A DNA stretch of 64,000 nt. Source: Nitrospira sp. Its GTDB lineage: Bacteria; Nitrospirota; Nitrospiria; Nitrospirales; Nitrospiraceae. Below, piece after piece: positions 8,103-24,273 of this stretch; the first letter of the stretch is position 1; the number at the start of each line of letters is the position of its first letter. The DNA lies in assembly GCA_047150005.1 (NCBI GenBank), contig AP038806.1, positions 3,552,001 through 3,616,000 on the forward strand, read 5' to 3'. The notes beneath the pieces are model-generated. The model did not search any database. It saw nothing but the letters and a program-made list of their open reading frames with translations, and was not told the origin of the DNA. A program made the translations under genes and the position numbers.

Positions 8103-8663
8103 TCAGTTCCCAAAGAGGTTCGGACTTCCGGTCAACACCTGGCCGTTGCCGACGGCGCTTCCTACCGCGGCAAGCGGTTTGGTGCCGTCGTTGAGCCGCA
8201 TGGTGGCTCCTTTTGCACTCAGAGTGCCTTTCGCCTCGACGGTCATCCCAGCGGCCGTGTGAATCGTGGCGTTTCCGCCGCTCCTCAGGGCCATGGTCGC
8301 GCCGGATTCAATGTTCGTGTCCGTCCCGCTCCTTACGGCGATCGATCCGGCCGACTGGATCATCGTGCCGCCCGCGCTCACGAAGGACAACGCCGGCGCT
8401 TGAATGACGGTTCCATTCGGTGAGACGTGGACGACCGATTGGATCGCAGCCAGCTGCAGCTGTAATGACTGGATCTGCTGCTGAAGCGCGGCGAGCTGCT
8501 GCTCGACCGTCATGGCCGGAATGGAGGTTGTCGGCGCGCGAAAACCCGGCTGCTGAGGACTCGTCGGTCCGGGCACCGCCCGCTCGGTGACATCATCGGC
8601 CGCGACGATCCCGCAGGGCCCAAGTGTAAGCGTCAGCAGCATGACTCTACCCAGAATCTTCAT
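8103..8663 (-). CDS. Secreted spike-like protein: coiled coil, gp5/gpV-type beta-repeat and PAAR-like tip
   Basis: Signal peptide; DDVTERAV; heptad QQLAALQQQIQSLQLQL; about 8-residue beta repeats; C-terminal KPLAAVGS...GQVLTGSPNL. Confidence 0.6.
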   Translation of the reverse strand: MKILGRVMLLTLTLGPCGIVAADDVTERAVPGPTSPQQPGFRAPTTSIPAMTVEQQLAALQQQIQSLQLQLAAIQSVVHVSPNGTVIQAPALSFVSAGGTMIQSAGSIAVRSGTDTNIESGATMALRSGGNATIHTAAGMTVEAKGTLSAKGATMRLNDGTKPLAAVGSAVGNGQVLTGSPNLFGN

Positions 8664-8719
8664 GTGCTCCCCCTCGGCAAAGGTTTGAGTGACAGCCGAA
8701 CATGGGCCATGCCGAACGG

Positions 8720-9754
8720 TCACAGGATGCTCATGTTCATCGTTTCGCAATACATCTCCACACGAACCACGGTCCCCGCCTTGGCGTTCGCCGGCTCAAG
8801 GGCATACCGCACAATGCCCAATCCGCCAAGCTGGACTGACACATTGCCGGCCTTCGCACCTGCCTGATCGGTCCACGTCAAGTGCCCCGACATTTCTCCT
8901 ACCTGCATACCCTTTACAACCGTGTCATCGAACCACTTGTAAAAAGGACCGGCGTACGCTTCGGGTAATCTGATCACGACGGGTGAACAGTCGAGGACTC
9001 CAGGCTGCTGCAGGAACTTCTCCTGTCCGGCACGCGATGCCGCGACCGGCCGTTTGGCCACGATCGCATCAACGTTGATGATTCGTTTGCAGGCATCCTC
9101 GAATCCCTGAATGGTGAAGGCGAAATTGGAGCTGACGATTTTCGCCGACTTGGCTCCCGCCATCGAGAGCACGTTCTTTCCGCTCCCTCCGGAAAAACGG
9201 GTAGACTGCGGAGCGATTCGCAGGGACAGTGCCGCGGGAGCCTTCGCTCCTACCGGGTCACAGAGAGGGGTGCCGATCTCCGTGATGACGGCCCCCATGA
9301 ATTCGAGCCGCTTGACTTCCTTGTAGTTGAAGTCCGCGTACAATATGGCCCCGTTCCTGGGGGTTGGAATTTTCGAGAGGGTATCTCCAATCCAGCCGCT
9401 CAGGGGTTTGGTGATTTGGGAAAAGTCCACGTCCAGCACAATATCCTCGAACCTCGGTGGGCCCGGCCGCTTACGCTGGATCATATCCGGCCCGACACCT
9501 TCCGAGATGATGTCGGCAAACGGGTTGCCGCCCTCGACGCCGGACAGGAGACCGGCGAATTGCCCTTCCAGTTCGAGGCCAACCGTCCCGCTCGCATACG
9601 AGCCTTTCAAGGCTGCTTCAGCCGGACTTGTCGACTCGATAAGAAATTTCGGTAGGCCGAGCAACATCGCACCTCCGGCCGCAAGGCCGACTTTGGCGAA
9701 AAAGCTGCGTCGGGAGAGCACCCTGGTCTCATCGGCGCTGGAAGAGTCGTTCAT
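8720..9754 (-). CDS. Tat-signal protein with two tandem phage tail-tube (T4 gp19/Afp1-like) domains
   Basis: SRRSFF...AEA Tat signal; LELEGQFAGLLSGVEGG, KRPGPPRFEDIVL, RNGAILYADFNYKEVKRLEF; second degenerate copy. Confidence 0.65.
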   Translation of the reverse strand: MNDSSSADETRVLSRRSFFAKVGLAAGGAMLLGLPKFLIESTSPAEAALKGSYASGTVGLELEGQFAGLLSGVEGGNPFADIISEGVGPDMIQRKRPGPPRFEDIVLDVDFSQITKPLSGWIGDTLSKIPTPRNGAILYADFNYKEVKRLEFMGAVITEIGTPLCDPVGAKAPAALSLRIAPQSTRFSGGSGKNVLSMAGAKSAKIVSSNFAFTIQGFEDACKRIINVDAIVAKRPVAASRAGQEKFLQQPGVLDCSPVVIRLPEAYAGPFYKWFDDTVVKGMQVGEMSGHLTWTDQAGAKAGNVSVQLGGLGIVRYALEPANAKAGTVVRVEMYCETMNMSIL

Positions 9755-9795
9755 GAAGACTCCTTTCACAATAGGGGTAACGCATGGTCCATAGG

Positions 9796-22940: not shown

Positions 22941-22963
22941 GATTGTCCTCCGTTCGTTTCCTC

Positions 22964-23056
22964 TCACTTCCCGTTTACCGCTCGCGCAATCAGTTCCTTT
23001 AATCCGTTCACATCCAGGGCACCCGGTACGAGTTCTGTGCCGACGATGAAGCCCGG
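22964..23056 (-). pseudogene. Remnant of a dsbA 3' end
   Basis: Reads PGFIVGTELVPGALDVNGLKELIARAVNGK*, versus PGFIVGTELVPGALDVKGLKELIARAGARP* in 24332..25099. Confidence 0.85.
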
Positions 23057-23130
23057 GACCACGCCTTGGTGTCTGACACCGTATTGCTCTCCAAGATGCA
23101 TCCAGAAATAGAGCGACGCACTGGTGCTCT

Positions 23131-24273
23131 CTAGCGCGTCTGGAGAGTGGGATACAGTAGCAAATTCTTAGCTCGCCAATACTTGAACCTCCCCTTGCAG
23201 GAGTCATTCTCCGCCTTTCTGACTCCTGTTACCCACTGGCCCCCGGTTGGGGTGGCCAGGAGGTCACCTATAGCCAGGGGCTGCGAAAAACCTGGTGGAT
23301 CCCAGAAAATATCCAAATTACGTTTGATGGTGGACAATGCTTCTACCCACCCAGGATCGTCATCAACAAATGTGAAACTCTCCTGGTGCAGCGGCTGTGA
23401 CCAGCTTACTTCGGATCGCACCCAGGTAAATTCTGGGACCTGCGTCGTGTCCGGAACAATTGCTGTGGACCACCCCCTATGGGAGTAAGATCTAGCATCC
23501 GGCAGCGCCCACACTAACCGGATCTCGGTCTGACCTGCCGTGTCGCAAAAATTGAGTAGCGTGAACTCGAAACGGCCCATGGCTACGTCATAGAGCGGAT
23601 CGAGATTGGCCTGCCATTTCATGCGATAAATCCCAACTTCCCCGGCGCTCGGTTCCGTGAGCGTAATGGCGATGTCCATCGCACGAGGTTTGCCGTCCCC
23701 TTCCCTGTCATTGTAGAGAAAACGGTTTCCCGTGCCGCCAGCATACGATTGCTTCGTTTGCCCAATGCCTGTCGGGGACGTGTAAATGATCCCGATATCA
23801 ACCGGTCGGGTGACGGATAGGTTTGGCGGGAGTGTCACTAACGTCGTCAGACTCTTGTGATTCAGTCGTAGCGCGTTCGCAATCAGAGTGAGATTGGGAG
23901 TCGAGGCTTGATACCGATCGGGTGGCAGGACCGTACCGGGCGTTGGCGCGGTAATCCCAGGAACAGGAATTTTCGTGGCCGGCGCCGGCGTCGTGCCTGA
24001 TGGAGCCGGGAACGTCCCTTGAGGCAATTGAAATTGACGGAAGACACCACGTTCCTGCACATCCCCGGCGTCTGCAGGTTGCAGCATATCAGATGGCTGA
24101 TGCTGCTCCTCTTGCGCGGGGGCAGGAGTTGGTGGTTCGGGTAAGGCGGAGTCGGGAATAATTGGCCGGGGTGCCGGTTCGTCGGCGAAGGTATCGTGCA
24201 CTGGTGCGGTGGTCAGGACGATGGCCGTGGTCAACAGCATAGCAAGCCGTAGCGTGATGCGTTCCATGGGCAC
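23131..24273 (-). CDS. Secreted hypothetical protein (divergent member of family P1)
   Basis: Signal ending TFA; DVQERGV; TPNLTLIANALR...PLYDV matches the P1 pattern. Confidence 0.78.
   Translation of the reverse strand: MPMERITLRLAMLLTTAIVLTTAPVHDTFADEPAPRPIIPDSALPEPPTPAPAQEEQHQPSDMLQPADAGDVQERGVFRQFQLPQGTFPAPSGTTPAPATKIPVPGITAPTPGTVLPPDRYQASTPNLTLIANALRLNHKSLTTLVTLPPNLSVTRPVDIGIIYTSPTGIGQTKQSYAGGTGNRFLYNDREGDGKPRAMDIAITLTEPSAGEVGIYRMKWQANLDPLYDVAMGRFEFTLLNFCDTAGQTEIRLVWALPDARSYSHRGWSTAIVPDTTQVPEFTWVRSEVSWSQPLHQESFTFVDDDPGWVEALSTIKRNLDIFWDPPGFSQPLAIGDLLATPTGGQWVTGVRKAENDSCKGRFKYWRAKNLLLYPTLQTR

Follow-up and report, generated by a model that had tools for sequence, protein, structure and literature searches.

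A conserved arginine-centred motif on unrelated secreted proteins of a Nitrospira gene island: a possible propeptide cleavage site with metacaspase-like peptidases as candidate readers

Introduction

The DNA analysed here, referred to as the window, is a stretch of 64,000 nucleotides from Nitrospira sp. (assembly GCA_047150005.1, contig AP038806.1, positions 3,552,001 to 3,616,000 of the forward strand), and all coordinates below are positions within it. Between 8103 and 24273 the window holds a row of minus-strand genes for proteins with signal peptides or lipoboxes, here termed the island and its cargo, and a short motif of the form (D/E)(V/I)QER(G/A)(V/I/L) recurs in these otherwise unrelated proteins. 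The closest homologues of the window proteins are labelled Nitrospira. A preliminary description of this DNA, made from the letters alone, had proposed a common reader for the motif, either a protease cutting after Arg or a docking or sorting factor, and had named caspases as candidates.

Results

The ten motif copies listed in the preliminary description are all present in the translations of the minus-strand open reading frames (ORFs) to which they had been assigned, and every carrier has, as claimed there, an N-terminal segment resembling a signal peptide or a lipobox. Naming each protein by the first coordinate of its gene, the small secreted protein 8103 (8103-8750) has a signal peptide ending in ...GIVAA that is directly followed by DDVTERAV (VTERAV at 8574-8591), and its orthologues retain (D/E)(V/I)TERAV or DIQERAV. 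The trypsin-fold S1 lipoprotein protease 9796 (9796-11208) carries VQERAV at 11050-11067. Two copies, VQERAV (12294-12311) and IQERGI (12174-12191), are found in 11373 (11373-12482), a member of the largest cargo family with two beta-sandwiches resembling immunoglobulin (Ig) or FN3 domains; 17994 (17994-19301; IQERGV at 18804-18821), the true start of which is likely MSHIVRR, is a paralogue, and 23131 (23131-24273; VQERGV at 24043-24060) a distant one. In the 1178-residue protein 12505 (12505-16041), which contains the zinc-protease motif HEFGHTMGINH, the copy is internal (IQERAV at 12970-12987, residue 1019), and an acidic, Pro-rich linker extends from ...TRSRGVLQEE to EEIQERAV. The remaining copies are VQERGV (17084-17101) in the beta-trefoil-like lipoprotein 16061 (16061-17311; Pfam DUF7910, 51.8 bits), VQERGL (19334-19351) in the small Cys-rich secreted protein 19082 (19082-19510), which forms one family with three orthologues, and IQERGL (22145-22162) in the cargo protein 21218 (21218-22489). 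The cargo set thus comprises a zinc-protease-like protein, an S1 protease, DUF7910 beta-trefoil proteins, Ig-like proteins and miniproteins. An AlphaFold2 model of the 11373 family reached a predicted local distance difference test (pLDDT) score of 80, and a Foldseek search against the PDB returned generic Ig/FN3-like sandwiches, with no match at E <= 0.001.

The preliminary description had proposed a motif search over the whole proteome; a six-frame scan of the genome, a single contig of 4,071,157 bases, adds the correction that the motif is not proteome-wide. The pattern [VI][QT]ER[GA][VIL] has 16 matches genome-wide, 10 of which lie within the 16 kb stretch 8103-24273, and the Q form [VI]QER[GA][VIL] has 9 of its 11 genomic copies there. 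On the basis of the two outside copies, 0.008 Q-form copies are expected in 16.2 kb (Poisson P(>=9) = 3.6e-25). The motif is accordingly a property of the island, not of the proteome.

For relatives of this organism, a degenerate DNA pattern encoding (D/E)(V/I)QER(G/A)x[V/I/L/F/M] was run over sets of genomes together with a reversed control pattern. Among 33 genomes of the genus, motif clusters were found in G001, G005, G006, G007, G010, G017, G023, G041 and G047, while the reversed control gave 0-1 matches per genome. Of 161 genomes of the family, 17 contain at least two nearby matches on one contig; these island genomes span six genera (g1, g7, g8, g10, g11 and g132), and two further genomes (G345 and G398) were counted solely among those without islands. 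When 301 genomes of the phylum were considered, every cluster fell within this family, among the matches listed (all but 23).

The motif copies from the window and from the relatives' loci were pooled (14 genomes, with motif copies in 12), which yielded 65 copies in 64 proteins, the mature parts of which form 16 families (blastp, 1e-5). The consensus reads x-x-(E/A/D)-(A/P)-G-(D/E)-(V/I)-Q-E-R-(G/A)-(V/L/I)-x-(P/R/K). Arg is fixed in all 65 copies, as are V/I and G/A, these latter two by the search pattern itself, and Q is present in 59 and E in 62. The codons are freely exchanged, with CGG 18, CGA 17, CGC 18, CGT 10 and AGA 2 times for the motif Arg and GAG and GAA 31 times each for the motif Glu, and the leaders share DNA solely over the 10-14 bases of the motif, with the paralogues 11373 and 17994 as the exception. 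Free synonymous codon use, together with leaders that are dissimilar in DNA outside the motif, marks the motif as a conserved peptide under selection and not a DNA repeat.

A lack of conservation in orthologues had been named in the preliminary description as a point that would refute its reading, and the motif was found to be kept, persisting in orthologues down to about 35% identity. In the 11373 family, with 109 homologues, the strict motif is found in 84; 16 are one-residue variants (one of them without the Arg), one is a partial variant and two are N-terminally truncated; in the remaining six, which are leaderless, the signal peptide runs directly into the conserved sequence APTPSLTAIRNAI with which the domain starts. 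Likewise, 82 of 120 orthologues of the S1 protease match the motif pattern, and in 21 more full-length ones (the inspection covered orthologues of at least 441 residues, 17 being shorter) changes are confined to P3, P2 or P1', counting the Arg as P1, while V at P4 and R at P1 are constant. These variants are VKERA(V/I), in 15 sequences, VRERAV, VQARAV, VQSRAV, VLERAV, VQERSI and VQERVV.

The surroundings of this N-terminal (N-type) motif are asymmetric in charge. Acidic residues make up 18% and basic ones 2% of the 25 positions upstream of it, as against 4% and 8%, respectively, of the 25 positions downstream. AlphaFold2 models place the motifs directly beside folded cores, in segments whose pLDDT is below about 50; in the model of 11373, residues 1-100 are disordered and the fold begins about 18 residues past the Arg.

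Moreover, a sister motif, here called C-type, was recognised in 26 copies of the form (V/I)-(M/Q/L)-(R/S/P)-R-G-V-E-G-E-(Q)-(P). It is located 16-27 residues from the C-terminus in small Cys-rich proteins and in the S1 protease, and in the two-domain 22362 family it lies between the domains. In the window it occurs as VMSRGVEGE (9862-9888) in the S1 protease, as IQRRGVEGE (17400-17426), followed by an acidic tail, in the small Cys-rich secreted protein 17346 (17346-17915), and as VIGRGVEGE (22560-22586) between the domains of the Cys-rich protein 22362 (22362-23207). The segment downstream of the C-type motif is 22% acidic, a mirror image of the N-type arrangement, so that in both types the acidic piece is on the side distal to the fold. 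Both types share an aliphatic P4, Arg at P1, Gly (in the N-type also Ala) at P1' and an aliphatic P2'. Among homologues of 17346 the C-type motif is retained in 22 of 24, and one homologue ends at ...TLQQR; in the protease, R444 and G445 of the C-type motif are invariant in 65 sequences. The corresponding DNA pattern clusters inside the same islands as the N-type pattern, although its background of about 0.5-1 match per genome is similar to that of the control and it is meaningful only as clustering.

The motif is thus situated between a dispensable extension and a conserved folded domain, as a propeptide site is; the extension appears dispensable because of the six leaderless homologues and the one 17346 homologue that ends at the Arg. 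The shared signature together with the distal acidic pieces is what would be expected if a single protease removed acidic pro-pieces at these sites. A scan of 15 island proteins gave no match to a sorting-signal model of NCBIfam, and their Pfam matches cover mature domains alone.

The trypsin-type enzyme encoded within the island itself is 9796 (Pfam Trypsin PF00089, 90.2 bits), with an invariant triad H121, D176 and S257. Residues 1-87 and 432-455 are disordered in its AlphaFold2 model, and both motif types flank the folded core. By alignment of the segment ..(S/A)LC.GDSG to kallikrein-2, all 120 orthologues in which it was found have Ser or Ala at position 189 and Ala at 226, and thus lack the Asp189 of Arg-specific trypsin-type S1A proteases. 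The S1 protease was found in 12 of the 161 family genomes and 10 of the 17 island genomes (Fisher P 5e-10); it was not found in the other 7 island genomes (G348, G258, G397, G410, G425, G376 and G438), of which G348 is 100% complete in one contig and G258 99% complete, and these islands retain both motif types. As an observation in its own right, the tail of the S1 protease past the C-type R-G (9796-9880) contains a block QPSPF(D/E)P in which Q458, P459 and F462 do not vary among 65 sequences, and this invariance indicates that the tail is more than acidic filler. The tail Phe, combined with a Ser189-type pocket, could represent an auto-inhibitory or self-cleavage element.

Two exported peptidases of family C14 are encoded on either side of the island. 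C14-A (1788-4037, minus strand) has a signal peptide or lipobox, a p20/p10-like fold and a DUF4384 domain, and lies in an operon-like row on the same strand behind genes for an anti-sigma factor (4145-4822) and an extracytoplasmic function (ECF) sigma factor (4819-5406). It matches Peptidase_C14 (PF00656) with 85.7 bits against a curated cut-off of 21.4, and its best solved relatives are the metacaspases Yca1, AtMC4, AtMC9 and TbMCA2 (E 1.6e-22). Its segments HYSGHG and LDSCHSG correspond in the alignment to the motifs of Yca1 that hold the catalytic His-Cys dyad, and in 78 sequences H117 and C174 are nearly invariant and D61 (SLND) and D172 (LDSC) invariant. The latter two are equivalent to Asp95 and Asp211 of TbMCA2, as mapped by motif register against Yca1, with the pocket residues as listed in PMC4357240. 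C14-B (38072-41224, minus strand) consists of a signal peptide, 7 WD40 repeats, CARDB, SH3 and Ig domains and a C-terminal Peptidase_C14 domain (PF00656, 70.7 bits), and alignment with AtMC4 and Yca1 shows that the dyad and both pocket Asp residues are present, in YYAGHG, in SDSCYSG and as the Asp of YADKD. The characterised non-caspase C14 enzymes, as far as they are covered in the relevant part of a 2017 review, all cleave after Arg or Lys (PMC5756287). C14-A, as a putative Arg/Lys-cutting peptidase with an acidic S1 pocket, is a candidate reader of the motif, and C14-B a second one.

Both enzymes co-occur with the islands. C14-A was found in 30 of the 161 family genomes and in 16 of the 17 island genomes (Fisher P 5e-13), and an orthologue of C14-B in 22 and 15, respectively (Fisher P 4e-14); these and the S1 protease value are overstated, since relatedness among the genomes and synteny of the whole region make the co-occurrences look more independent than they are. 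In 13 of the 14 genomes in which both positions were seen C14-A lies 6-35 kb from the motifs, the distance being about 100 kb in G010, and in G386 a further island adjoins C14-A. A complex prediction of C14-A residues 35-300 with a 45-residue leader (residues 60-104) gave a score of 0.00, which informs neither way.

Upstream of the sigma factor gene a block GGTCAA..CTATTGAGGG (5473-5495) is conserved in five genomes and is probably the sigma factor's own promoter. A promoter of this ECF type shared by the island was considered and rejected, the pattern GTCAAN{9,15}TATTG having given no link to the island. Close homologues of the catalytic part of C14-A (55-63% identity) occur in Steroidobacteraceae and Myxococcota (loci L090, L109, L110, L114, L115, L116 and L118), which suggests that the combination of C14 and DUF4384 may have spread horizontally. 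Counts of 4-mers in ORFs near C14-A homologues outside Nitrospira were swamped by spurious high-GC ORFs.

Discussion

The observations on the island can be accommodated in a model in which the cargo proteins, after Sec or lipoprotein export, would carry an extension that is disordered, acidic and rich in Pro, with (D/E)(V/I)-Q-E-R | (G/A)-(V/I/L) as its junction to the folded part, and in which the sister site (V/I)-x-x-R | G-V-E-G-E would join folded domains to acidic C-terminal tails. A cut after the Arg would free the acidic extension at either motif type, and cuts in the 1178-residue protein would excise its acidic linker. We regard the interpretation of the motif as a propeptide cut site on secreted island proteins as standing at about even odds. 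The reader would be an Arg-specific exported protease encoded with the island, for which C14-A and C14-B are the leading and best candidates, an assignment that we put forward tentatively and with less assurance than the cut site itself. More doubtful still, though conceivable, is an extracytoplasmic metacaspase 'proprotein convertase' system in Nitrospira and its relatives, in which one or both C14 enzymes would activate a whole set of secreted pro-proteins by removing their acidic pieces at VQER|G and xxRR|GVEGE. One of the two would be wired to the ECF sigma/anti-sigma pair, and the cargo would comprise two proteases, lectin-like beta-trefoils, Ig-like proteins and disulfide-rich miniproteins.

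The common reader postulated in the preliminary description is thereby supported in part, namely by the conservation of the motif, the C-type signature, the distal acidic residues and the leaderless homologues. The naming of caspases likewise finds partial support in the linkage of the island to two exported C14 peptidases that are metacaspase-like and have an acidic S1 pocket. Several points nevertheless speak against a metacaspase-cut propeptide site. That the site is cut at all, at which bond and by which enzyme, we infer from sequence. Q at P3 and E at P2 are fixed beyond any known metacaspase preference that we could cite. Two genomes that are 99% complete (G174 and G138) have C14-A, yet only background-level motif matches; conversely, no C14-B was found in the island genome G240, and neither C14 was found in G438, which is 89% complete and has its island on a contig of 3.7 kb. 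Furthermore, the C14-A family is much more widespread than the motif, which is absent within 10 kb of the C14-A homologues in Steroidobacteraceae, Myxococcota, Planctomycetota and others. The pattern GTCAAN{9,15}TATTG matches in the window at the sigma gene and at one unrelated place, and nowhere inside the island. Finally, co-occurrence offers no means of telling C14-A apart from C14-B or from further neighbours that are conserved as well.

Instead of being cut, the motif might be a docking, sorting or retention tag that stays on the mature protein and is bound by a component of export, surface attachment or chaperoning. Its position just behind the signal peptides of unrelated proteins would suit such a tag, Q and E are held more tightly than a simple P1 site needs, and cleavage itself is something we infer. 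However, the same P4/P1/P1'/P2' signature occurs near C-termini and between domains, where the acidic stretch is again always distal to the motif, some homologues are leaderless and another terminates at the Arg, and no NCBIfam sorting-signal model was matched in the proteins scanned, all of which makes a retained tag rather unlikely.

Two further explanations keep the idea of a propeptide site and assign the cut to other enzymes, and both appear improbable to a similar degree. According to the first, the island S1 protease would be the reader, cutting itself at both ends and other cargo after Arg. This enzyme is encoded inside 11 of the islands inspected gene by gene, has an invariant catalytic triad and both motif types in its disordered flanks, and motif clusters are present in 10 of the 12 genomes of the family sample that encode it. 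However, Ser or Ala at position 189, with Ala226, and its apparent absence from 7 of the 17 island genomes, including the complete G348 and the 99% complete G258, where both motif types are kept, make it a poor reader, and the S1 protease looks like cargo rather than a general reader. According to the second, a housekeeping periplasmic protease would make the cut and the specificity for the island would result from a leader module spread by recombination. The clustering of the carriers, three of which are paralogues, is compatible with this, and the link of the C14 enzymes to the motif is indistinguishable from mere synteny. Yet the leaders have neither DNA nor protein similarity outside the motif, the motif is kept over at least six genera with free synonymous change, and the rest of the proteome is nearly devoid of it, with 2 Q-type copies outside the island. 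That the motif is a modification or cross-linking site for a transglutaminase-like enzyme acting on Gln/Glu, or a metal-binding site, is highly implausible: Q and E are invariant or nearly so, but the protease orthologues, with P4 and P1 fixed, have K at P3 in 15 sequences and R or L there in some more, the C-type motif lacks the Q-E pair, and Pfam and NCBIfam scans recognised no modifying enzyme in the island.

A propeptide site read by a dedicated protease would have several counterparts. Kex2/furin sites, PEXEL and RxLR are short motifs on unrelated secreted proteins that depend on a dedicated protease, and, like the island motif, they are found a few dozen residues behind the signal peptide. 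In contrast, they are eukaryotic, belong to different protease classes and consist of dibasic, RxLxE/Q/D and RxLR sequences, whereas the island motif has a single Arg preceded by Gln-Glu and followed by Gly/Ala and an aliphatic residue. PEP-CTERM, LPXTG and GlyGly-CTERM are bacterial sorting signals represented in NCBIfam. They resemble the island motif in being short lineage-specific tags on unrelated exported proteins with a co-occurring dedicated processing enzyme, but differ in that the tag is C-terminal and combined with a transmembrane helix and a sortase-type enzyme, while the island motif is without a hydrophobic helix.

Closer to the predicted activity of the C14 enzymes, plant PROPEP1 is cut by metacaspase 4 and the GRI peptide by metacaspase 9. 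In both cases a C14 enzyme with an acidic S1 pocket frees a product by cutting a precursor after Arg. The plant precursors, however, are cytosolic or apoplastic peptides that are cut one substrate at a time, whereas the island system is bacterial and extracytoplasmic, covers at least 16 unrelated families with one fixed hexapeptide, and its activity is predicted. Similarly, MaOC1 of Microcystis is a prokaryotic C14 enzyme with a His-Cys dyad and basic P1 specificity, and consists of the p20 domain alone; in the sections of the 2017 review that concern it, it is the sole biochemically characterised orthocaspase as of that date, and no natural substrate for it is named there (PMC5756287). C14-A and C14-B differ from MaOC1 in their signal peptides and large additional domains. 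Another exported Arg-specific cysteine peptidase of clan CD, gingipain RgpB of Porphyromonas, has a prodomain that is removed at defined Arg sites; it belongs to family C25 and uses another secretion route, and the portion of the source dealing with it does not describe a shared hexapeptide on unrelated cargo (PMC4357240).

Among the listings and abstracts retrieved for trypsin-like secreted proteins and metacaspases of Nitrospira we found nothing on this island, a literature search with the motif strings gave no relevant publication, and no curated family in Pfam or NCBIfam covers the motif. In kind, the motif resembles dedicated propeptide sites; its novelty lies in the sequence, in the pairing of an N-terminal with a C-terminal form, in a setting that is bacterial and extracytoplasmic, and in C14 enzymes as likely readers. 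Prokaryotic caspase homologues are abundant, and, to our knowledge, essentially nothing is known of their substrates. If the C14 assignment is true, the island would provide a natural substrate set and a recognition sequence, each the first of its kind for a metacaspase from a prokaryote. It supplies a concrete substrate motif that is cheap to test, together with two enzymes as candidates and dozens of naturally occurring variants of the sequence. In addition, it would define a lineage-specific secretome of nitrite oxidisers that is made as pro-proteins, which bears on the dealings of these biofilm organisms with their neighbours. As regards the host lineage, Nitrospirae are listed among the phyla richest in prokaryotic caspase homologues in the part of the survey concerned with their distribution (PMC3501461).

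Neighbouring genes and other features of the window

Immediately upstream of the island cargo, on the same strand, lies a gene for a DsbA-like thiol:disulfide oxidoreductase (24332-25150; Pfam DSBA, 86.5 bits). It adjoins cargo in 18 of 21 related loci inspected, the other three ending at contig ends, and its position fits the many Cys-rich cargo proteins. Two island proteins, both encoded on the minus strand, are without the motif. One (8720-9799) has a signal resembling those of twin-arginine translocation (SRRSFF) and no match in Pfam, NCBIfam or PHROGs, and its orthologues are present in other islands. The other, a secreted protein (19588-21147), yielded hypothetical clusters and a weak Vps62 lead in an Atlas search. 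PHROGs gave no match for four island proteins.

The 19588 protein shares an N-terminal domain of about 100 residues with the 12505 protein (43% identity over 99 residues, E 5e-22), encoded at 20668-21060 and 15442-15864, respectively, on the minus strand. This domain ends in SGVKTR-AV (15520-15543) in 12505 and in SGTRPR-GA (20737-20760) in 19588, so that an Arg followed by a small residue recurs at the domain border in both proteins.

On the other side of the island a divergent plus-strand pair (5578-8079) is conserved with the C14-A module and consists of a DUF4384 lipoprotein (5578-7173) and a secreted protein (7183-8079). The lipoprotein contains a low-complexity region of about 250 residues that is rich in Q, G, P, Y and N and has many NPYG repeats, and it stays a neighbour of the sigma/C14-A operon in other genomes. 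Between 26382 and 32915 there is a run of paralogous secreted proteins that have neither Pfam families nor the motif, apart from one weak Jacalin-like match; it is followed by a gene for apolipoprotein N-acyltransferase and is syntenic with islands in several genomes. Finally, two ORFs of 390 residues on opposite strands (52358-53530 and 56451-57623) have near-identical N-termini, and the pair looks like a repeated mobile-element gene.

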